From NCBI GenBank assembly GCA_030539335.1, contig JAUNSG010000011.1, forward strand, positions 19,238-83,237: a stretch of 64,000 nt of DNA. The letters run 5' to 3'. The DNA is from Eubacteriales bacterium. GTDB lineage: Bacteria > Bacillota > Clostridia > Oscillospirales > Butyricicoccaceae. Numbering within the stretch: position 1 is the first letter of the stretch; every line of letters begins with the position of its first letter. Position numbers and translations under genes: made by a program. Below, one piece after another: positions 1,147 to 10,169 of the stretch. Below the pieces are notes generated by a model. The model ran no database searches and was not told the origin of the DNA. It was given only the letters and a program-made list of their open reading frames with translations.

Positions 1147-3783
1147 ATGAAGAAATGGGTATACGAGTTTTCAGAAGGCAATGCAAATATGCGTGAGCTT
1201 CTCGGCGGCAAGGGCGCGAACCTGGCTGAGATGACCAATCTGGGTCTGCCGATTCCGAATGGATTTACTGTTACCACAGAGGCCTGCACTGACTACTATA
1301 TACAGGGAAAGCAGATCTCTCAGGAGATTCAGGATCAGATTTTTGCAGCACTGGCAATTCTGGAGGAACAGCGCGGCAAGAAGTTCGGTGACGAGTCCGA
1401 TCCGATGCTGGTTTCTGTTCGTTCCGGCGCACGAGCATCCATGCCGGGCATGATGGATACCATTCTGAATCTTGGCCTGAATGATATTTCCGTTGAAGGT
1501 TTCGCAAAGAAGACCGGCAATCCGCGCTTTGCATATGACTCTTACCGTCGTTTCATCCAGATGTTCTCTGATGTAGTTATGGAGATGAGCAAGACCTTCT
1601 TCGAAGGCATTCTGGACGAGATCAAAGCTGCAAAGGGTGCAAAATACGATACAGATCTGACGGCAGAAGATCTGAAGGAAGTTATTGCAAAGTATAAGGC
1701 GATTTACGCGGAGAAAATGGGTGCAGAGTTCCCGCAGGACCCGAAGGTTCAGTTGATGGAAGCAGTAAAGGCTGTATTCCGTTCCTGGGACAATCCGCGG
1801 GCTATCGTATATCGTCGTATGAACGATATACCAGGCGACTGGGGCACTGCTGTTAACGTACAGTCGATGGTATTTGGCAACATGGGAGATACCTCCGGCA
1901 CCGGCGTTGCATTCACCCGCAACCCGTCCACCGGCGAAAAAGGTATCTTTGGTGAATACCTGATTAACGCTCAAGGCGAAGACGTAGTAGCAGGTATTCG
2001 TACGCCGCAACCGATTTCCCGTCTGGCGGCGGATCTTCCGGAATGCTACGCACAGTTCATGGAAATCGCTGAGTGTCTGGAGAATCATTATCGGGACATG
2101 CAGGACATGGAGTTCACCATTCAGGAAGGCAACCTGTTTTTCCTGCAGACCAGAAACGGAAAGCGCACTGCTTCGGCAGCGATTAAGATCGCTTGTGACT
2201 TGGTTGACGAAGGAAAAATCACCCCAGAGGAAGCCGTTCTTCGTATTGAGGCGAAGAGCCTTGATCAGCTGCTGCACCCGACCTTTGTTGCTGCTGCACT
2301 AAAGAGCGGCGAAGTAATCGGAGAGGCTCTGCCAGCATCTCCAGGCGCTGCTGCAGGTAAGGTTTATTTCTCTGCGGAAGACGCTAAGGCTGCTCGCGTT
2401 GAGCGCGGCGAAGCGGTTATTCTTGTTCGTCTGGAGACTTCTCCGGAGGATATTGAGGGCATGCATGCAGCGGAGGGCATCCTGACCGTTCGCGGAGGTA
2501 TGACCTCACACGCAGCCGTAGTAGCTCGTGGTATGGGTACTTGCTGCGTATCCGGCTGCGATGAGATTGCCATCGACGAAGAGGCTAAGGTATTCTCCCT
2601 CGGTGGCTATATTTTCCATGAAGGTGATGAGATCTCCCTCGACGGTTCTACCGGCAAGATTTATAAGGGTCTGATTCAGACTCAGGAAGCTTCTGTTGGC
2701 GGTGACTTCGCCCGTATCATGGCTTGGGCAGATGAGTTCCGCCGTCTGCAGGTTCGCACCAATGCGGATACTCCCTCCGACACTGCAAATGCAGTTCGTC
2801 TGGGCGCCGAGGGCATCGGCCTGTGCCGTACCGAGCATATGTTCTTCGAATCGGATCGTATTCCGAAGATCCGTAAGATGATTCTGTCTGACACCGTTGA
2901 GCAGCGTGAGTCAGCTCTGGCTGAGCTCCTTCCATTTCAGAAAGCAGACTTCAAGGTTATGTATACTGCACTGAATGGCCGTCCGATGACCGTTCGTTAT
3001 CTCGATCCACCGCTTCATGAGTTTGTCCCAACCGATCCGGAAGACATCGCAGTTCTGGCATCCGATATGGGTATGACTGCGGAACAGGTTCAGCAAAAGT
3101 GTGACGACCTCCATGAGTTCAACCCAATGATGGGCCATCGTGGTTGCCGTCTGGCTGTTACTTATCCGGAAATTGCTAAGATGCAGACCCGTGCGGTAAT
3201 GGAGGCCGCGATCGAGGTTCAGGAAGAGACCGGCAAGGCTATCGTCCCGGAAATCATGATCCCACTGGTAGGCGAGCGCAAAGAACTGAAGTTTGTGAAG
3301 GATATCGTTGTTGAGACTGCTGAGCAGGTTAAGTACGAAAAGAGAAGCGATATGGAATACCACATCGGTACTATGATTGAGATCCCGCGTGCAGCTCTGC
3401 TGGCTGACGAGATCGCTCAGGAAGCAGATTTCTTCTCCTTTGGCACCAACGACCTGACCCAGATGACCTTTGGCTTCTCGCGTGATGACTCCGGCAAGTT
3501 CCTGGATTCTTACTACAGTGCGAAGATTTACGAGTCCGACCCATTTTCCCGTCTCGACCGGAACGGCGTAGGCCAGCTGGTTAAACTGGCTACAGAGCGC
3601 GGCAAGGCTATCCGTCCGAACATCAAGCTTGGTATCTGCGGCGAGCACGGCGGCGATCCGGACTCGGTTGAGTTCTGTCACAAGGTTGGTCTGAACTATG
3701 TGTCCTGCTCGCCGTTCCGCGTGCCGATTGCACGTCTGGCAGCGGCACAGGCAGCGCTGCGAAATCCCGATTCATATAAATAA
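1147..3783 (+). CDS. ppdK: pyruvate, phosphate dikinase
   Basis: 878 aa; LLGGKGANLAEM, VSVRSGA, GGMTSHAAVVAR (phospho-His), GICGEHGGDP; RBS GGAG. Confidence 0.98.
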   Translation: MKKWVYEFSEGNANMRELLGGKGANLAEMTNLGLPIPNGFTVTTEACTDYYIQGKQISQEIQDQIFAALAILEEQRGKKFGDESDPMLVSVRSGARASMPGMMDTILNLGLNDISVEGFAKKTGNPRFAYDSYRRFIQMFSDVVMEMSKTFFEGILDEIKAAKGAKYDTDLTAEDLKEVIAKYKAIYAEKMGAEFPQDPKVQLMEAVKAVFRSWDNPRAIVYRRMNDIPGDWGTAVNVQSMVFGNMGDTSGTGVAFTRNPSTGEKGIFGEYLINAQGEDVVAGIRTPQPISRLAADLPECYAQFMEIAECLENHYRDMQDMEFTIQEGNLFFLQTRNGKRTASAAIKIACDLVDEGKITPEEAVLRIEAKSLDQLLHPTFVAAALKSGEVIGEALPASPGAAAGKVYFSAEDAKAARVERGEAVILVRLETSPEDIEGMHAAEGILTVRGGMTSHAAVVARGMGTCCVSGCDEIAIDEEAKVFSLGGYIFHEGDEISLDGSTGKIYKGLIQTQEASVGGDFARIMAWADEFRRLQVRTNADTPSDTANAVRLGAEGIGLCRTEHMFFESDRIPKIRKMILSDTVEQRESALAELLPFQKADFKVMYTALNGRPMTVRYLDPPLHEFVPTDPEDIAVLASDMGMTAEQVQQKCDDLHEFNPMMGHRGCRLAVTYPEIAKMQTRAVMEAAIEVQEETGKAIVPEIMIPLVGERKELKFVKDIVVETAEQVKYEKRSDMEYHIGTMIEIPRAALLADEIAQEADFFSFGTNDLTQMTFGFSRDDSGKFLDSYYSAKIYESDPFSRLDRNGVGQLVKLATERGKAIRPNIKLGICGEHGGDPDSVEFCHKVGLNYVSCSPFRVPIARLAAAQAALRNPDSYK

Positions 3784-4011: not shown

Positions 4012-5529
4012 TTATGCTTCTTCAGATGCGGTTGCGTGAATAAAATGCTCAATGCGGTAGGAAACGCGCAGCAGAAAACGAAGAGAGGGATCTTCTAAGT
4101 TCAGGTTTCCGATTTCAGCAATGCGGTCCAGACGGTAGGCCAGTGAATTTCGATGGATAAACAATGCATTGGCCGTTTCTTTGCTGTTGCACCAGCATTC
4201 CAGATAAACCTCCAGCGTATGGTGAAGATCGTTCCCGGTCTGCTTGTCGTGCTCTTTGAGCAGGGATAGGGCAGGGTGGATATAGTTCTTCAGCGTGGAG
4301 GAACGGGGGATTTGGTCGATTAGATCATAGAACTGCAGATCGACATAACGGCAAAAACGATTGGAATTGCCGAGCTGTTGATTCAGAGAAATTGCGGTGG
4401 AAGCCTGACGATACGAAAGAGAAAATTGCGAAATATCAGAAAATAGATTGGACATCCCAAGATATAGATTTTCTTTTTCCAATAGTCCTTCCAGTTGCGT
4501 TTGATACTCTTCCGGAAGATCCTTCATCGGCAAAGGCAGCAGGACGGCGATCGAATTCTCATGAACGGTCAGATAAGCTTCTGGAAGGATGAGAAGAATC
4601 TGACGGAGTATGTTCTGGAAGGGTTGTCTTTTCTTTAAATCGTGTGTTTGAATGCACAAGGCATACATTTGATTGGATAGCTTTAGCAAATTGGGAGAGG
4701 TATCGAGGCGTTCTAAAGGAGTCCCGATTAGGAGGTCGTCCAGCAACTGCTGGTACTTGCCGGTATGCTGTACAATATCCGGCTGATACCGATTGATGGT
4801 GTAGCTGAGCGCCCGGCTGACGTCGCGCATCGACTCCAAATGAGCCGATGAGAGCGAGACCTCCCCTTCAATCATCAGGACAAATCCGATCTGGACACCA
4901 TTTAGGAAGACCTTGCTGCTGCATTTCCGGTGCGGAGATTCCGGACAGGTCACCTCAATCGCATCGGTAGTGAACGTAGCCTTTCGCACCGTTTCCAACT
5001 GCTGCACGGCGCAGATGAATTCATAATTGCAAAACCCCTTTTCTACATTCTCTTTCCAGAGAAAATCCGTGACGGGAATGGTCGTGGAGTGGGAAAGGAT
5101 ACGGAATTTCATGTCGCAGAAAATCAAAGAATTTCCCAGCTTTAATGATGCCATATTCAAAACGGCATCGACATTGTGACTCTCGTTGGCCCGCTCGGCC
5201 AGCTCTTCGTATAAACTCCGCTGTGCGTGCGCAGAGATATACTGCTTGGCGGAATTGAAGGCGGCAAACAGAAACGGTGGTTCCACAGCGGCCAGATCAC
5301 TACAGGAGAAAGAAAACAGACCGGGAGAGACATCGGCCAAAATACATTGCTCCGGCTGAACGTTATTGGAAAGGGATTCCGCATAGCCGAAGTATACGAT
5401 TTGATCCGAAAATGTGGTTTGCTGGCCATCCAAAAGCGCAACATCCTTTATTTCATGAATATCGCTGATGCATATCGTGCGGATGGAAATCGTGTTCGAT
5501 AGATGCTGAAGCAGCTGTGAAAACAACAT
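4012..5529 (-). CDS. PucR/CdaR-family transcriptional regulator
   Basis: C-terminal TLEVYLECWCNSKETANALFIHRNSLAYRL HTH; likely start MLFSQ at 5529 after a GGGGGA RBS; divergent from the OYE-ADC gene. Confidence 0.9.
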   Translation of the reverse strand: MLFSQLLQHLSNTISIRTICISDIHEIKDVALLDGQQTTFSDQIVYFGYAESLSNNVQPEQCILADVSPGLFSFSCSDLAAVEPPFLFAAFNSAKQYISAHAQRSLYEELAERANESHNVDAVLNMASLKLGNSLIFCDMKFRILSHSTTIPVTDFLWKENVEKGFCNYEFICAVQQLETVRKATFTTDAIEVTCPESPHRKCSSKVFLNGVQIGFVLMIEGEVSLSSAHLESMRDVSRALSYTINRYQPDIVQHTGKYQQLLDDLLIGTPLERLDTSPNLLKLSNQMYALCIQTHDLKKRQPFQNILRQILLILPEAYLTVHENSIAVLLPLPMKDLPEEYQTQLEGLLEKENLYLGMSNLFSDISQFSLSYRQASTAISLNQQLGNSNRFCRYVDLQFYDLIDQIPRSSTLKNYIHPALSLLKEHDKQTGNDLHHTLEVYLECWCNSKETANALFIHRNSLAYRLDRIAEIGNLNLEDPSLRFLLRVSYRIEHFIHATASEEA

Positions 5530-5701
5530 AGGATGTCCCCCCCTTTTTTTCGGATAACGGAATGTTTTCTTCAGTATAGTGCGCCGTGCACAAAAGGTCA
5601 AGCATTTTTTAGGATGTATGCCGTTGTTTTGCACAGAACAAAACCGATAAAATGAATGCAACAAAAAAGACATTCTACGTCTGGGAAGAGGAGGAAACGA
5701 C

Positions 5702-8512
5702 ATGTATCAGAAGTTATTCGAATCCGGAAATATTGGCAAGGTAACGCTGAAAAATCGTCTCGTGATGTCTCCGATGGGCATTGGCCTGGCAGAGATGGAC
5801 GGCTCTCCGTCAGAGGATATGATCGCATTTTATGAAGCCCGTGCGATTGGCGGGGCCGGATTGATTATTCCAGAGATTACCCGTGTCAATGATATGCACG
5901 GAGCTGGTATGATGCGCCAGCTGTCTGTGACAAGGGATCGCAATGTGGAGGGTCTGGCCCGGCTGGCAGCGGCGATCCATAAGCATGGAAGCCGCATTTT
6001 TATTCAGCTGCATCATCCGGGCCGCGAGACGGTCACGGCATTGACCGGAGGGCCGGTGGTTTCGGCCTCTGCGATTCCATGTAAATATTTGCAGCAGGAA
6101 ACGCGTGCACTGACGACGGAGGAAGTCAAGCAGCTGATCGGACAGTTTATTGACGGTGCGGTTCGAGTCCAAAGGGCGGGATGTGACGGTGTGGAGCTGC
6201 ACGCTGCGCATGGATATCTGCTCCAGCAGTTCTTATCCCCGTATACGAATAAGAGAGAGGATGAATACGGCGGATCGTTTGAGAACCGCTTGCGCATGGT
6301 GAAGGAAATTATCGCGGGCATCCGCGAAGCGTGCGGTGCCGATTTCCCGATCGGCGTCCGTCTCAGTGTAGAAGAATTCCTGGATCAAACCGGAGTGACG
6401 GAAGATTACATTCATATTCAGGATGGCATCAAAATTGCCATGGCGCTGGAACAGAGTGGAATTGATTTTATCGATGTCTCGGTTGGTCTGTATGAGACGG
6501 GAAGCACCTGTGTGGAGCCGATTTCATTCCCGCAGGGCTGGCGGCGCGAGCTGCTCAAGGCGGTCAAGGATCATGTTTCCATTCCAGTGATCGGTGTCTC
6601 ATCGATCCGGGAACCGGCGGTTGCAGAAAAGATGTTGGAAGACGGCATTGAGGACTTTGTTTCCATGGGACGCAGCTGGCTGGCGGATGAACAGTGGGGC
6701 AGAAAGGTCCAGGAAGGCCGGGAAGAAGATCTGTGTAAATGTATCAACTGCCTGCGCTGCTTCGAGAGCCTGAATCAGTGGAACGGCGCCGGAATCCCGG
6801 CAGAATGCGCCCTGAACCCACGGATGGCGCGGGAGAAAAAATATGGCGATCTGATCTATGACCAGGAAGGCCATACCGCTGTTGTTGTTGGCGGAGGTCC
6901 GAGCGGCATGATCGCGGCCAAAACACTGGCAGAGCGCGGTGTGAAGGTTACATTGATTGACCGCGGCGAGGAATTGGGCGGCACGATCAATCTGGCGAAA
7001 AAGCCTCCGCTCAAGGAGCGGATGCAGTGGATCGCCGATTATTACCAGACGGCGTTGGATAAGCTGGGGGTTACGATCCAGCGGAACACAGAGGCAACGG
7101 CAGATCAGATTGCCGCGATGGCGCCGGATGCGGTGATTGTAGCGACGGGATCGAAGTCGGTGGTTCCATCGAAAATACCGGGAATCCAGCGTGAAACAGT
7201 ACATACGATTGAGGATGTTCTGTCCGGAAAGATTGCGCTGTCCGGAAAGAAGGTTGTCGTGGTCGGCGCAGGAAGCACGGGCATTGAGACCGCAGAATAT
7301 CTCTGCGCAGCCGGCAATACAGTGACGATTGCGGATATGCTGGACAAGGTTGCACCGAATGCAAACCATACCAATGTAGCGGACACTTGCGGCAGATTGC
7401 GCAAGTATGGGGCACAATTCCTTCTGGGTCATGCGCTGAAGGAAATCCAGGAAGGAAGTGTTGTTCTGGACCGTCAGAGCGACCACGAAGCGGTCACGGT
7501 TCCGGCAGATGCCGTTGTACTCTCCCTTGGATTCCGGCCGGACAATGGACTGGCACAGGAATTGAAGGAAAAAGGGATTCCGGTTGTTGTGACCGGCAAT
7601 GCCGTGAAGGACGGTACGATTGCCCCGGCGACCCGCAGCGGATACGAAGCCGCGCGAAAGCTGTTTGTCCGGGAAGAAAAGCGGCCGAGCTTCCTCACAG
7701 CCCCGGAGGAACTTCCGAATTTTGGAAAGGTTTCCCTGATGAAGAATCAGGAGGGAATCTATCTGGCATACTTGACGGACCCGGCTGCGATTGCGCGTCT
7801 CCTTCCGCCGCCGCTCAAGCCGTTTTCCGTTCCGGTGGTCACCCTGTCGGCATGTCATGTCAAGGAGCCGACCTTTGCGGACGATTATTATGAAGCGATC
7901 CTCGGCGTTTATTGTACGTATGGCAAGACACTGGGCCTGTATCCGATCGGACTGGTGCTGGGCGGCCCGGGCGCGGAGATGGCAGTGCAGTGTGGACGTG
8001 ACAACGGCTCCATCCCGAAAAAGCTCGGCGCAGAATTTGTGATCCGCCGCAATGGAAATGCGGTTACGGCACAGGTAACACGGCGCGGCACACAGCTTGT
8101 GGATGTGACGATGGAATTGGGCGAATACAACAATGCGATGACCGGCGTACTGTATCAGTTCCCGGAGGCAGGGAAAAAGACATATGGCGGCGGATTCTAT
8201 TTCCATCTGGATCGCGAGCCGGATGAAGCGGGGGTATCGCACTTCCAGAACGGCGCACTGCTGCAGAACTTGTGTGAATACAACTACCATTCCTGGGAGC
8301 CAGGCTTTGCCCGGCTGACGCTGCAATCCTCGATAGATGATCCATGGGCGGAGCTGCCGATCCATACAATCGTTGGCGGCGCATATTCCTGCAATGACCT
8401 GATGGTACACAAGCTGAATCTGGCAGAGAGGCTGGATGCCGATGAAATTGTTCCGTATCTGCTGACGGGTCGGTATGACCGTACCGCATTTATGGAAACC
8501 GGAAGAGTATAA
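5702..8512 (+). CDS. NADH:flavin oxidoreductase (OYE TIM barrel + 4Fe-4S + FAD/NAD domains) fused to a C-terminal acetoacetate-decarboxylase-family domain
   Basis: ELHAAHGYL, CINCLRC, VVGGGPSG and VVGAGSTG; from about aa 660 an ADC-like domain with GRDNGSIPKKLG (Schiff-base Lys pair). Confidence 0.88.
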   Translation: MYQKLFESGNIGKVTLKNRLVMSPMGIGLAEMDGSPSEDMIAFYEARAIGGAGLIIPEITRVNDMHGAGMMRQLSVTRDRNVEGLARLAAAIHKHGSRIFIQLHHPGRETVTALTGGPVVSASAIPCKYLQQETRALTTEEVKQLIGQFIDGAVRVQRAGCDGVELHAAHGYLLQQFLSPYTNKREDEYGGSFENRLRMVKEIIAGIREACGADFPIGVRLSVEEFLDQTGVTEDYIHIQDGIKIAMALEQSGIDFIDVSVGLYETGSTCVEPISFPQGWRRELLKAVKDHVSIPVIGVSSIREPAVAEKMLEDGIEDFVSMGRSWLADEQWGRKVQEGREEDLCKCINCLRCFESLNQWNGAGIPAECALNPRMAREKKYGDLIYDQEGHTAVVVGGGPSGMIAAKTLAERGVKVTLIDRGEELGGTINLAKKPPLKERMQWIADYYQTALDKLGVTIQRNTEATADQIAAMAPDAVIVATGSKSVVPSKIPGIQRETVHTIEDVLSGKIALSGKKVVVVGAGSTGIETAEYLCAAGNTVTIADMLDKVAPNANHTNVADTCGRLRKYGAQFLLGHALKEIQEGSVVLDRQSDHEAVTVPADAVVLSLGFRPDNGLAQELKEKGIPVVVTGNAVKDGTIAPATRSGYEAARKLFVREEKRPSFLTAPEELPNFGKVSLMKNQEGIYLAYLTDPAAIARLLPPPLKPFSVPVVTLSACHVKEPTFADDYYEAILGVYCTYGKTLGLYPIGLVLGGPGAEMAVQCGRDNGSIPKKLGAEFVIRRNGNAVTAQVTRRGTQLVDVTMELGEYNNAMTGVLYQFPEAGKKTYGGGFYFHLDREPDEAGVSHFQNGALLQNLCEYNYHSWEPGFARLTLQSSIDDPWAELPIHTIVGGAYSCNDLMVHKLNLAERLDADEIVPYLLTGRYDRTAFMETGRV

Positions 8513-8547
8513 GGATTGGCCGAAAGAGCAGAAAGGAAGCTTGACAT

Positions 8548-9303
8548 ATGAAATTGCAAAATAAAGTAGCCATCATTACTGGCTCCACACGTGGTATTGG
8601 ACGGGCAACGGCAAAATTATTTGCCAAGGAAGGCGCCAAGGTTGTCGTCGTCGGCACAAAGGAAGAGCTTGGCGAGAGCTGTGTCGCGGAAATCCGGCAG
8701 GATGGCGGCGAAGCTATTTTCTGCAAGACGGATGTGACGAGTGAAGCGAGCTTGGATGCGCTGCTTCAGGCCTCGTTGGATGCGTTTGGAAGACTTGATA
8801 TCCTGGTCAACAATGCCGGTGTCGGCGGGACTACCGCCAATATGAACCAGATCACCATGGAGGAATGGGATACCGTGCTGGCAACAAACCTGACCGCGCC
8901 GTTTGTCCTTTGTAAGAAGGTCATTCCGCTCATGGAAGAGCAGGGCGGCGGTACGATCGTCAACATTGCTTCCATGGCATCGACGGCAGCCGGACGCGGC
9001 GGACTGGCCTATACGGCGGCAAAGCATGGCCTGCTGGGTCTGACCCGTCAGATGTCCTTGGATCATGGACGCACAGGCATCCGTGTCAATGCCGTCCTTC
9101 CGGGACCGATTGATACAGAAATGATTGCCCGGGTCCTGGCAGTACCGCAGCACCCGGTTACGATGAAAGTAAAAATGAGCCCGGCAACGCGCCCCGGCAA
9201 GCCGGAAGAAGTTGCACAGGCCATTGCGTTCCTGGCAAGTGAGGAATCGTCCTTCATCCATGGAGCTGCGCTGGCGGTAGACGGTGGGTACACCATTTTC
9301 TAA
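8548..9303 (+). CDS. short-chain dehydrogenase/reductase
   Basis: TGSTRGIG, NNAG, YTAAK. Confidence 0.92.
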   Translation: MKLQNKVAIITGSTRGIGRATAKLFAKEGAKVVVVGTKEELGESCVAEIRQDGGEAIFCKTDVTSEASLDALLQASLDAFGRLDILVNNAGVGGTTANMNQITMEEWDTVLATNLTAPFVLCKKVIPLMEEQGGGTIVNIASMASTAAGRGGLAYTAAKHGLLGLTRQMSLDHGRTGIRVNAVLPGPIDTEMIARVLAVPQHPVTMKVKMSPATRPGKPEEVAQAIAFLASEESSFIHGAALAVDGGYTIF

Positions 9304-9602
9304 AGCGGAAAAGCATTCCGTAATAGGGATGATCCATTTGGAAGAAAAAGAAGCAATCACGGATAGGCAAACCAGAATTGGTGCGCTTATCCGTGATCTT
9401 TTTATGGAGCGAAACATGCTGATCGGCTGCGCGGGTTTGAAATAGACCGCGATGAGAAAAGCAATTGGTGATGCCGGATACACAAGCAGAGCATTTACCA
9501 ATTGCCAGAGCGGACAGGCCTCTTATACTGTCGCCATAAGAAAAACAGCTTTTCCGCCATGTTTGGGATATCCCATCTCTGGTCTGCAAAGCTGTTTTGC
9601 GT

Positions 9603-10169
9603 TCAATCATTCGGATCAATTTTTCGTATCACTCTGCATGGAACACCTCCTGCAAGCGAGTGATCCGGTATATCTGCGGTCACAACACTTCCTGCCGCAA
9701 TCACACACCCGGTTCCAATCGTCACGCCTGGCAGCACGGTTACATTTGCTCCTAGCCATACATGATCGCCGATGGTAATTGCCTTTGCCTGTTCCAGCCC
9801 CTGATCCCGCTCTCGATACGAAAGCGGATGATTTGCCGTATAAAATCCACAGGACGGACCGATAAATGCGTAATCGCCGATTGTAATCGGTGCACCGTCC
9901 ATAAAATAGCAATTCAAATTGACAAAAACCTTTTTTCCAAACTGGATATTCGTTCCATAATCGCAGAAAAACGGACTGCTGATCGCAAGCTCTTCCGGCT
10001 TGTAACCCAGCAGCTCTTCCAGTTTTTGCTGACGCTGTATCTCATCGCTCGGTCGGATGCGATTCAGCTCGTAGCACAGGTCCATCGCGTGTGTCCGTTC
10101 ATCCAGCAGATGTTTGTCGTAATTGGCATTATACCACTCTCCAGCCTTCATCTTTTGTTCTTCGGTCAT
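9603..10169 (-). CDS. maltose/galactoside O-acetyltransferase family protein
   Basis: Mac-type N-terminus, PFFCDYGTNI, hexapeptide repeats, AGGVPCRVIR. Confidence 0.9.
   Translation of the reverse strand: MTEEQKMKAGEWYNANYDKHLLDERTHAMDLCYELNRIRPSDEIQRQQKLEELLGYKPEELAISSPFFCDYGTNIQFGKKVFVNLNCYFMDGAPITIGDYAFIGPSCGFYTANHPLSYRERDQGLEQAKAITIGDHVWLGANVTVLPGVTIGTGCVIAAGSVVTADIPDHSLAGGVPCRVIRKIDPND

Follow-up and report, generated by a model that had tools for sequence, protein, structure and literature searches.

Introduction

In anaerobic gut chemistry, the principal enzymes are the iron-sulfur (Fe-S) flavoenzyme reductases, which act on bile acids, bilirubin, steroids, isoflavones and cinnamates; whenever a clade has been newly assigned, the assignment has accounted for the transformation of a metabolite that matters to medicine or ecology. 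The Fe-S ene-reductases of the Old Yellow Enzyme (OYE) family, which include the clostridial 2-enoate reductases, the 2,4-dienoyl-CoA reductase (DCR) FadH (1ps9), 2-naphthoyl-CoA reductase (NCR; 6qkg), BaiCD/BaiH and the bilirubin reductase BilR, have in common an FMN barrel, a CxxCxxC...C motif and a FAD/NAD(P)H part, and none of these members has a domain of the acetoacetate decarboxylase (ADC) superfamily. Here we describe a gene whose product has such a domain. It lies in a 64,000-nucleotide (nt) stretch, referred to below as the window, from an Eubacteriales bacterium of the family Butyricicoccaceae (GenBank assembly GCA_030539335.1, contig JAUNSG010000011.1, positions 19,238 to 83,237). 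The gene, at window positions 5702-8512 on the forward strand, encodes a 936-amino acid (aa) protein in which an Fe-S flavoenzyme ene-reductase is fused to an ADC-superfamily domain. It is followed by a gene for a short-chain dehydrogenase/reductase (SDR) and faces a divergent gene for a PucR-family regulator. The analysis below makes it highly probable that the three genes form a self-contained, horizontally mobile catabolic cassette, in which a PucR-type regulator accompanies two enzymes that together catalyze three coupled reactions of a small carbonyl compound.

The described relatives of the ADC-like half are of two kinds. In the true acetoacetate decarboxylases, Arg29, Glu61, Glu76, Lys115, and Lys116 (Clostridium acetobutylicum numbering) are important active-site residues. 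MppR (4jm3-4jme), the aldolase-dehydratase Sbi00515 (4zbo, 4zbt, 6eej), and Swit_4259 (5upb) have the same fold and also apply Schiff-base lysine chemistry to keto compounds; they yield conjugated 2-oxo-enoates or cyclised keto acids, compounds that an OYE could plausibly reduce. The PDB titles of Sbi00515 speak of an 'aldolase-dehydratase in Schiff base complex with pyruvate' and of a structure 'in covalent complex with dienone product', and in the solved non-decarboxylase members of the superfamily with a stated function (PDB titles and the MppR paper) the lysine serves C-C or dehydration chemistry. None of the three is linked to a reductase, and their sources are aerobic actinobacteria and a sphingomonad, with no anaerobe among them. 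The partnership of a reductase with an ADC-like domain provides a new physiological context for the ADC superfamily, few of whose functions are characterized.

Domain organization and conservation of the fusion protein

The fusion is encoded by one uninterrupted open reading frame (ORF) preceded by a ribosome-binding site, GAGGAGG (5688-5694), which is read directly from the sequence 7 nt ahead of the ATG. A preliminary description of this DNA, made from the letters alone, had proposed the single ORF, and at least 73 full-length orthologs bear it out. The N-terminal OYE-type FMN TIM barrel (aa 1-345, 5702-6736) matches the Pfam family Oxidored_FMN (PF00724) over residues 4-342 (1.2e-71; 242 bits against a cut-off of 27) and contains the active-site motif H167-x-x-H170-G-Y172 (nt 6200-6217). 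It is followed by a 4Fe-4S motif, C347-x2-C350-x2-C353...C369 (6740-6808), which corresponds in the alignment to the cluster region of both DCR and NCR, and by a FAD and NAD(P)H domain of two Rossmann units (aa 385-655, 6854-7666), recognized by Pfam as Pyr_redox_2 (residues 393-628, 7.9e-30, 104.7 bits) and Pyr_redox, with GxGxxG motifs at 397-402 and 522-527. A weakly conserved linker (aa 656-672, 7667-7717) leads to the ADC-superfamily beta-cone domain (aa 673-936, 7718-8509), which matches the Pfam family ADC (PF06314) over residues 676-909 (3.3e-44; 151.6 bits against 29.8). In the AlphaFold model of the whole protein, the mean pLDDT is 86.8 and the pTM 0.76, and the sole disordered stretch is residues 657-669 of the linker, where the pLDDT falls below 50; modelled alone, the ADC domain reaches a pLDDT of 96.1.

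In the protein database, more than 120 clusters, whose proteins are about 936 aa long and 75-82% identical to the fusion, likewise combine Oxidored_FMN, Pyr_redox_2 and ADC. The clade is a common one, as some of these clusters, formed at 90% identity, comprise hundreds to about 4,000 metagenome sequences. A Foldseek search with the whole fusion found no PDB entry that spans the full protein (best TMq 0.65). Likewise, a full-text literature search returned no relevant paper linking acetoacetate decarboxylase to an OYE, ene-reductase, enoate reductase or dienoyl-CoA reductase, to a fusion, or to PucR. The author of the preliminary description knew of no characterized enzyme with this architecture, and we found none in the PDB, NCBIfam or the searchable literature.

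A scan of species-representative genomes retrieved 80 fused loci, 73 of which were aligned over their full length. In this alignment, H167, H170, Y172, the four cluster cysteines (C347, C350, C353, C369), and both GxGxxG motifs of the reductase part are invariant, as are Q683, E731, E759-M-A, G765-R766, P772-K773-K774, Y860, Y862, W865, and D879-D880-P881 in the ADC part. Measured against the window protein, the orthologs average 77% identity in the OYE part, 63% in the FAD/NAD part and 69% in the ADC part, and conservation is thus high in each of the three. The electron path from NAD(P)H through FAD and the 4Fe-4S cluster to FMN is shown to be intact by the predicted motifs. The nearly invariant D545 closes the second beta-alpha-beta unit, and an aspartate there, where the second Rossmann beta-strand ends, suggests that NADH may be the donor.

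The reductase half is an Fe-S flavoenzyme of the OYE family

The reductase half is assigned to the OYE family by its PF00724 score, the invariant H167, H170, and Y172, an active-site string HAAHGY like that of the YqjM-type OYEs, and a Foldseek match to YqjM (1z41, TMt 0.88). The cluster cysteines, the GxGxxG motifs, the Pyr_redox_2 domain and the Foldseek matches place it further in the Fe-S flavoenzyme subclass, which has the architecture of FadH, enoate reductase and TMADH. The structural matches of the reductase part lie between TMt 0.88 and 0.92 overall, with NCR (6qkg) at 0.91 and DCR (1ps9) at 0.88, over about 676-703 aligned columns.

At the level of individual enzymes, the fusion shares 28-30% identity with the known Fe-S ene-reductases and reaches none of the curated NCBIfam equivalog cut-offs. 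It had been described as a BaiH/DCR-type flavoenzyme; this is right for the architecture only. The models for BaiCD/BaiH (NF041087, 449.3 bits against a cut-off of 825), the long form of bilirubin reductase BilR (NF045599, 415.2 against 750), and the mycofactocin OYE-2 (431 against 793) all scored below threshold. The name usually given to such proteins in databases, 2,4-dienoyl-CoA reductase FadH, is not supported either. Glu164/Tyr166 and His252 are the catalytic residues of E. coli FadH, and an alignment to 1ps9 retained the tyrosine but placed His170 at Glu164 and Tyr264 at His252 (GWHE changed to GLYE). The active-site string reads HAAHGY in the fusion, as against MGSEGY in FadH/DCR and CAIVGY in NCR. 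The substrate of the reductase half is expected to be an alkene activated by a carbonyl or carboxylate group.

The ADC-like half differs from true acetoacetate decarboxylases

The C-terminal domain is a member of the ADC-like superfamily (PF06314 fold), as indicated by its beta-cone fold and by the invariant PKK in the G-R-x5-P-K-K region. All 24 significant Foldseek matches of the domain were ADC-superfamily structures, with the true decarboxylases 3bh2 and 3bgt first (TMt 0.78, 18-20% identity), followed by MppR, Sbi00515, 3cmb, and Swit_4259. The motif GRDNGSIPKKLG (G765-G776) aligns to GRELWGFPKKAG of the Chromobacterium violaceum ADC (3bgt), and the same region aligns to the PKK of the C. 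acetobutylicum ADC (3bh2); this makes K773 and K774 the counterparts of Lys115 and Lys116, which had been proposed from the GR.....PKKLG motif. Lys773 (codon 8018-8020), which the hidden Markov model (HMM) alignments to 3bh2 and 3bgt predict to be the Schiff-base lysine, is conserved to at least 90% over the wider ADC-like subfamily, and in the HMM alignments Glu76 of ADC is likewise retained, as E731.

The domain shares with the true decarboxylases the beta-cone fold, the GR...PKK motif with the Schiff-base lysine and its neighbor, and the equivalent of Glu76. In contrast, the sequence alignment with them covers only the N-terminal half of the fusion domain, which has invariant motifs of its own (QEG, GPGAEM, SSxDDPW, and GRYDR) and is either fused to a reductase or encoded in an operon with one. 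The NCBIfam model for true acetoacetate decarboxylase (EC 4.1.1.4; NF002614) scored 28.4 bits against a cut-off of 150, and the active-site set is incomplete: Arg29 is replaced by the invariant Gln683, and Glu61 by Ser716 or, across the subfamily, by hydrophobic residues. From the kept equivalents of Lys115, Lys116, and Glu76, the glutamine in place of Arg29, the missing Glu61, and the failed NCBIfam model, a plain acetoacetate decarboxylase is unlikely, and the domain appears to be a Schiff-base enzyme of a distinct family. This subfamily is small, with 319 matches at E<=0.001 among 1.84 billion representative proteins. The profile E-values of the domain were 2e-22 for 3bgt, 2e-7 for Swit_4259 (5upb), and 0.2 for Sbi00515 (4zbo). 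Similarity to the group of MppR, Sbi00515, and Swit_4259 is barely detectable in sequence, and the corresponding TMt values are 0.62-0.72.

Functional coupling of the reductase, ADC-like and SDR activities

The SDR encoded by the window (251 aa, 8548-9303, forward strand) starts 35 nt 3' of the fusion gene in the same operon. It is a classical SDR (Pfam adh_short_C2, 2.9e-69, 233.7 bits) with TGSTRGIG at residue 11, NNAG at residue 88, and Y155-x3-K159, and it meets no NCBIfam equivalog cut-off. Neighbor counts for the SDR and for the regulator were made with tblastn. An SDR adjoins the fusion in 46 of the 72 other loci and belongs to one of three non-orthologous lineages: type A (27 loci), type B, which is that of the window (13), and type C (6), which is PRK06194-like, as is the SDR of one of the split loci described below (L093). 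All three lineages fall below every NCBIfam equivalog cut-off and give no hint of the substrate. Since non-orthologous SDRs were recruited repeatedly, at least three times, a ketone/alcohol step seems to be needed that is not bound to one SDR lineage.

Stand-alone ADC-like proteins of about 280 aa also exist. Their genes, with 33-35% identity to the ADC part of the fusion, lie 28-30 nt 3' of a separate gene for a 632-640 aa OYE/Fe-S/FAD reductase that is 43% identical to residues 1-651 of the fusion, and at the same loci an SDR gene is found directly 3' of the ADC-like gene. Other split loci have the order ADC-reductase-SDR behind a TetR gene (L093), BKACE-SDR-ADC-reductase behind a sigma-54 activator (L090), or reductase-SDR-ADC. 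A metagenome scan gave 80 stand-alone ADC loci, of which 34 were informative, having 1.5 kb or more of flank on either side; in 31 of these a same-strand reductase lies upstream, and the reductase, ADC-like and SDR genes stand together there in three gene orders. The reductase, the ADC-like domain and the SDR are thus fused or adjacent in more than 90% of the informative loci and in at least four arrangements, which indicates that the three activities work together and supports their functional coupling. This includes the pairing of the fusion with the SDR anticipated in the preliminary description. Close relatives carrying two separate genes had been named there as an observation that would speak for a recent read-through; the close relatives are all fused, and split genes occur only in the distant ones with 33-35% identity, a pattern that supports functional coupling and not read-through.

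In a tree of the reductases, fused and split copies separate into two clades, with supports of 100 and 98, respectively. The tree of the ADC domains gives the fused clade a support of 97, with one long-branch stand-alone sequence nested inside it. Both trees contain the same three fused sub-clades, namely Coriobacteriia, an Anaerovoracaceae-type group, and the main Clostridia group. The simplest reading of these trees is that an ancestral reductase/ADC/SDR operon underwent one fusion event, after which the two halves would have co-evolved.

The split operons contain several further genes. At 24 loci (L082:3808-5004; L084, L087, L109-L113, L133-L141, and others), the gene directly 5' of the split operon codes for a polytopic membrane protein of about 400 aa, which matches nothing in Pfam or NCBIfam and may be a substrate permease. 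At 12 other split loci it is substituted by a second, unrelated polytopic membrane protein of about 356 aa (e.g., L123:7680-8747), which is also uncharacterized. LuxR regulators or an OprB porin occur in split operons as well. A 3-hydroxyacyl-CoA-dehydrogenase-type gene (3HCDH_N and 3HCDH) stands beside the split triad at L185:4075-4986 and at 11 more loci. At L090:3422-8186, a BKACE gene is co-operonic with the SDR, ADC-like and reductase genes, and the sigma-54 activator ahead of them is PrpR-like. This BKACE scored under all NCBIfam cut-offs; the models it comes closest to are those of the enzymes that cleave 3-keto-5-aminohexanoate, 3,5-dioxohexanoate, and 3-oxoadipate.

Distribution and probable horizontal movement of the cassette

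The full-length orthologs (57-82% identity) were found in Lachnospiraceae, Oscillospiraceae, Acetobacterium, Anaerovoracaceae, Clostridium, and Coriobacteriia. The carriers include isolates and complete chromosomes of Robinsoniella, Anaerocolumna, Anaeromicropila, Lacrimispora, Hespellia, Murimonas, Lachnotalea, Jingyaoa, Flintibacter, Acetobacterium tundrae, A. paludosum, Clostridium cadaveris, Sinanaerobacter, Baileyella, and Mobilibacterium, with Anaeromicropila herbilytica and Lacrimispora sp. HJ-01 among the complete chromosomes. The copy of the actinobacterium Olsenella phocaeensis is 57-58% identical to that of the window. By contrast with this wide range, the ADC-like domain was found in none of 60 relatives of the window genome (23 congeners, 13 further members of the family, and 24 further members of the order), and the nearest homologs of the window fusion, at 81-82% identity, are in other families. 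For these two reasons, we regard the cassette as an accessory, horizontally moved element in this genome, and, as judged from sequence comparison, it is one that has moved across families and two phyla. A tblastn search of 72,556 plasmids gave no match.

According to the genome records, the fused form comes from human, mouse, pig, and ruminant guts, from digesters, and from subsurface and wetland Acetobacterium, while the split form comes from activated sludge, sediment, and fermentation metagenomes. Such a broad distribution, which includes non-host habitats, argues against a host-specific substrate and for a widely available plant- or microbe-derived compound. The candidates put forward in the preliminary description were a plant phenolic, a steroid or similar.

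The immediate surroundings of the cassette in the window contain a gene for pyruvate phosphate dikinase (PPDK; 1147-3783). It is one of two copies in the genome, the other being at G000:C13:87729-90341, and both are 90% identical to the query. The congeners have one PPDK copy each, with unrelated genes downstream, and the window copy may therefore belong to a larger accessory region. An empty-site test of acquisition was attempted with this gene. As the flanking PPDK is a second copy and the PPDK of the congeners has unrelated downstream genes, no empty site could be defined.

Two broken copies of the fusion gene were seen in metagenome-assembled genomes (MAGs). One (L073:8001-10809) has a frameshift at residue 557. 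The other (L074:4246-6995) has a deletion of about 18 residues and a frameshift exactly at the reductase/ADC junction, with loss of the segment containing F674, M680, and Q683. Because this conserved segment is deleted, a natural re-splitting of the fusion was rejected for L074 in favor of a pseudogene or an assembly error.

Proposed pathway and alternatives

In the proposed scheme, the PucR-type regulator presumably responds to the substrate and controls the two-enzyme operon. Electrons from NAD(P)H, probably NADH, would pass through FAD and the 4Fe-4S cluster to the FMN, which, in a classical OYE site formed by His167, His170, and Tyr172, would reduce a carbonyl-activated C=C bond. Lys773, aided by Glu731, would form a Schiff base or enamine with the ketone of the same substrate. 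Our preferred mechanism, to which we assign a probability of roughly 0.4, is that the ADC-like step makes an enone, the fused reductase reduces it at once, and the SDR performs a ketone/alcohol step. The ADC-like domain would then act like MppR, Sbi00515, and Swit_4259, by beta-elimination of water or by aldol condensation and dehydration, and its product, a conjugated enone or 2-oxo-enoate, would be a reactive Michael acceptor that arises at an unfavorable equilibrium. Immediate and irreversible reduction by the fused reductase would follow, and the SDR would either supply the starting ketone from an alcohol or reduce the final ketone. The net outcome would be a reductive dehydroxylation or a chain extension. 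The sequence in which the steps occur, the kind of Schiff-base reaction, the electron donor, and the effector of the regulator are inferences. The fusion of the two halves would make most sense if the intermediate is toxic or disfavored.

The scheme resembles bile acid 7-dehydroxylation by the bai enzymes, in which an alcohol is oxidized, an enone arises by dehydration, and an Fe-S flavoenzyme reduces the C=C bond. The likeness to the bai set (the SDR BaiA, the Fe-S flavoenzymes BaiCD/BaiH, and the dehydratase BaiE) lies in the logic and in the SDR and reductase families, and we take it as a lead. The fold of BaiE differs from that of the ADC-like domain, and the fusion stays below the cut-offs of the bai models. 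Bile acids themselves are an unlikely substrate, since the carriers include tundra and wetland Acetobacterium, digesters, and sediments.

Several observations weigh against an enone-forming ADC-like step followed by reduction. Profile and fold place the ADC-like domain nearer to the true decarboxylases (3bgt, 2e-22, TMt 0.78) than to Sbi00515 (0.2, about 0.69) or MppR, and there is no residue-level evidence for a dehydratase or aldolase role. An adjacent SDR is absent from 26 of the 73 fused loci (the window included in the count). No transporter or substrate-specific neighbor is conserved at the fused loci, where only the regulator and the SDR are; we looked for the substrate among the recurrent neighbors and found generic or lineage-specific clusters (ABC/FtsX transporter, two-component system, MCP, MatE, DegV, UvrB, and pyruvate kinase). 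Finally, the 3HCDH-like genes at 12 split loci and the BKACE gene at one locus fit a hydroxy- or beta-keto acid product, which favors C-C cleavage.

The first of these points leads to the alternative that survives best, though we consider it doubtful: reduction followed by decarboxylation, a reaction that the preliminary description had listed as one of two chemistries of the ADC superfamily. The OYE part would give a beta-keto acid from an unsaturated keto acid, the ADC-like domain would decarboxylate it through Lys773, and the SDR would reduce the resulting ketone. Genuine acetoacetate decarboxylases are the closest solved relatives by both profile and fold, the equivalents of Lys115, Lys116, and Glu76 are invariant together with the GR motif, and the lability of a beta-keto acid would provide a rationale for the fusion. 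However, the failure of the NCBIfam ADC model (28.4 bits against 150), the invariant Gln683 at the position of the important Arg29 and the non-acidic Ser716 at that of Glu61, and an alignment with ADCs that is limited to the N-terminal half all count against decarboxylation.

Cleavage of a C-C bond is a further alternative that we hold to be unlikely. From a phenol tautomer or a cyclic enone, the reductase would produce a 1,3-dione, either cyclic or linear, which the ADC-like domain would cleave through a lysine enamine (retro-Claisen hydrolysis or retro-aldol), and the SDR, or a 3-hydroxyacid dehydrogenase together with BKACE, would process the keto- or hydroxy-acid. We know of no ADC-superfamily member that hydrolyzes beta-diketones, the known enzymes for this reaction having other folds. 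Moreover, BKACE was found in only 1 of about 170 loci and in none of the fused ones. On the other hand, that one BKACE is co-operonic with the triad (L090), a 3HCDH-type dehydrogenase accompanies the triad at the 12 split loci, and glutamine in place of Arg29 might suit a neutral carbonyl or gem-diol better than a carboxylate. The route would parallel the anaerobic phloroglucinol pathway, where the triacetate-forming (3-hydroxy-5-oxohexanoate) dehydrogenase is from the 3HCDH family and the lyase is of the BKACE type (PMC10470551).

The same set of domains could also run in reverse, with the Fe-S flavoenzyme as a BaiCD-like desaturase on a ketone supplied by the SDR and the ADC-like domain as a hydratase-aldolase, the reverse of Sbi00515. 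Reactions of the Sbi00515 type are reversible in principle, and BaiCD is the best NCBIfam match of the reductase, though far under the cut-off. We nevertheless judge this direction improbable, given the unfavorable thermodynamics of making an enone from a ketone with NAD+ and the fact that HxxHGY is a reductive OYE site.

Similarly improbable is a non-catalytic ADC-like domain that would serve as a substrate-binding, oligomerization or regulatory module on an ordinary enoate reductase. True ADCs and clostridial enoate reductases have both been reported as large oligomers, which would suit such a role. Yet the Schiff-base lysine, its glutamate partner, and about 20 further residues are invariant in the 73 orthologs, with the lysine kept at 90% or more across the subfamily, and in distant lineages the domain is also a separate co-operonic protein. 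Lastly, an assembly error or a read-through of two genes has a negligible chance of explaining the fusion. Apart from the two broken MAG copies nothing was found that might speak for it, and 73 independent full-length copies from isolates and MAGs, complete chromosomes included, conserve the frame across the junction.

Enone formation with immediate reduction thus remains our preferred mechanism. In a wider form, covering either an enone-forming dehydration or an enamine-driven C-C cleavage of a dione or hydroxyketone, we put the odds somewhat short of even that the ADC-like domain performs a Schiff-base reaction new to its superfamily in obligatory coupling to the ene-reductase, and that the fusion with its swappable SDR represents an unrecognized, widespread anaerobic route that, in guts, rumen, digesters, and sediments, breaks down some common carbonyl or phenolic compound derived from plants or microbes. 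The parts come from known superfamilies, and there is a substantial chance that they carry out new chemistry. If the Schiff-base step and the ene-reduction are channelled, the fusion would be a natural case of lysine (amine) catalysis coupled to flavin ene-reduction, which would be of interest for biocatalysis.

The PucR-family regulator and its candidate operator

The regulator gene (4012-5529, reverse strand) is divergent from the fusion gene, with an intergenic region of 172 nt, and encodes a protein of 505 aa starting with MLFSQLL. Its start was assigned from the sequence and the ribosome-binding site. The longest ORF, which extends to 5703, is an over-extension that overlaps the start of the fusion gene, and the ATG at 5529 was chosen because it gives the length of about 505 aa over which the orthologs align. 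A GGDEF-like domain in the middle (GGDEF_2, 9.2e-10, 39.2 bits) is followed by a C-terminal PucR-type helix-turn-helix (HTH_30, PF13556; 2.2e-19, 69.4 bits), which places the protein in the PucR/CdaR family; the N-terminal part had no family match. No NCBIfam equivalog was reached (AdeR, 79.9 bits against a cut-off of 700). An adjacent divergent ortholog of the regulator, with 30-50% identity over about 500 aligned aa, is present in 57-58 of 72 fused loci, depending on the filter.

The intergenic region contains a conserved 27-nt element, TATAGTGCGCCGTGCACAAAAGGTCAA (5575-5601), located 128 nt 5' of the fusion start, which is a candidate PucR operator. On the reverse strand it reads TTGACC-17-TATACT, a predicted promoter of the regulator gene (5601-5573 in a promoter scan), and a palindrome of the type GTGCA-N3-TGCAC lies within the promoter spacer. 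With at most 6 mismatches of 24 allowed, the element consensus, TATAGTGCAnnnTGCACAAATTGTCAA, occurs in 55 of 58 regulator-bearing loci and in none of the 11 loci that have enough flank but lack the regulator; in shuffled 18-kb loci, the best matches had 6-9 mismatches. Across the loci the element is positioned 104-190 nt 5' of the first operon gene. It has the shape expected of an autoregulatory operator that is also upstream of the enzyme promoter. PucR control of the operon had been proposed for the interval 5702-9303, outside which the regulator gene lies, and the divergent gene and the co-occurrence of the element with it make such control plausible. A half-site-like word, TGCACA(A/G)AA, occurs twice in the window, at 5587-5595 inside the 27-nt element and 43 nt away at 5630-5638. 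The second copy overlaps what is likely the -35 region in the promoter of the fusion gene and may serve the regulator as another site. The cassette provides a defined two-protein system for enzymology, and its regulator together with the candidate operator could be used as a biosensor in the search for the substrate.

Beyond the cassette, the window contains a gene for a maltose O-acetyltransferase-like hexapeptide transferase (9603-10169, reverse strand), which is not conserved beside the fusion in other genomes. Two long ORFs antisense to the cassette genes, one opposite the fusion (6599-8410, reverse strand, 603 aa) and one opposite the SDR gene (8617-9501, reverse strand, 294 aa), are by-products of the composition of the coding strand.

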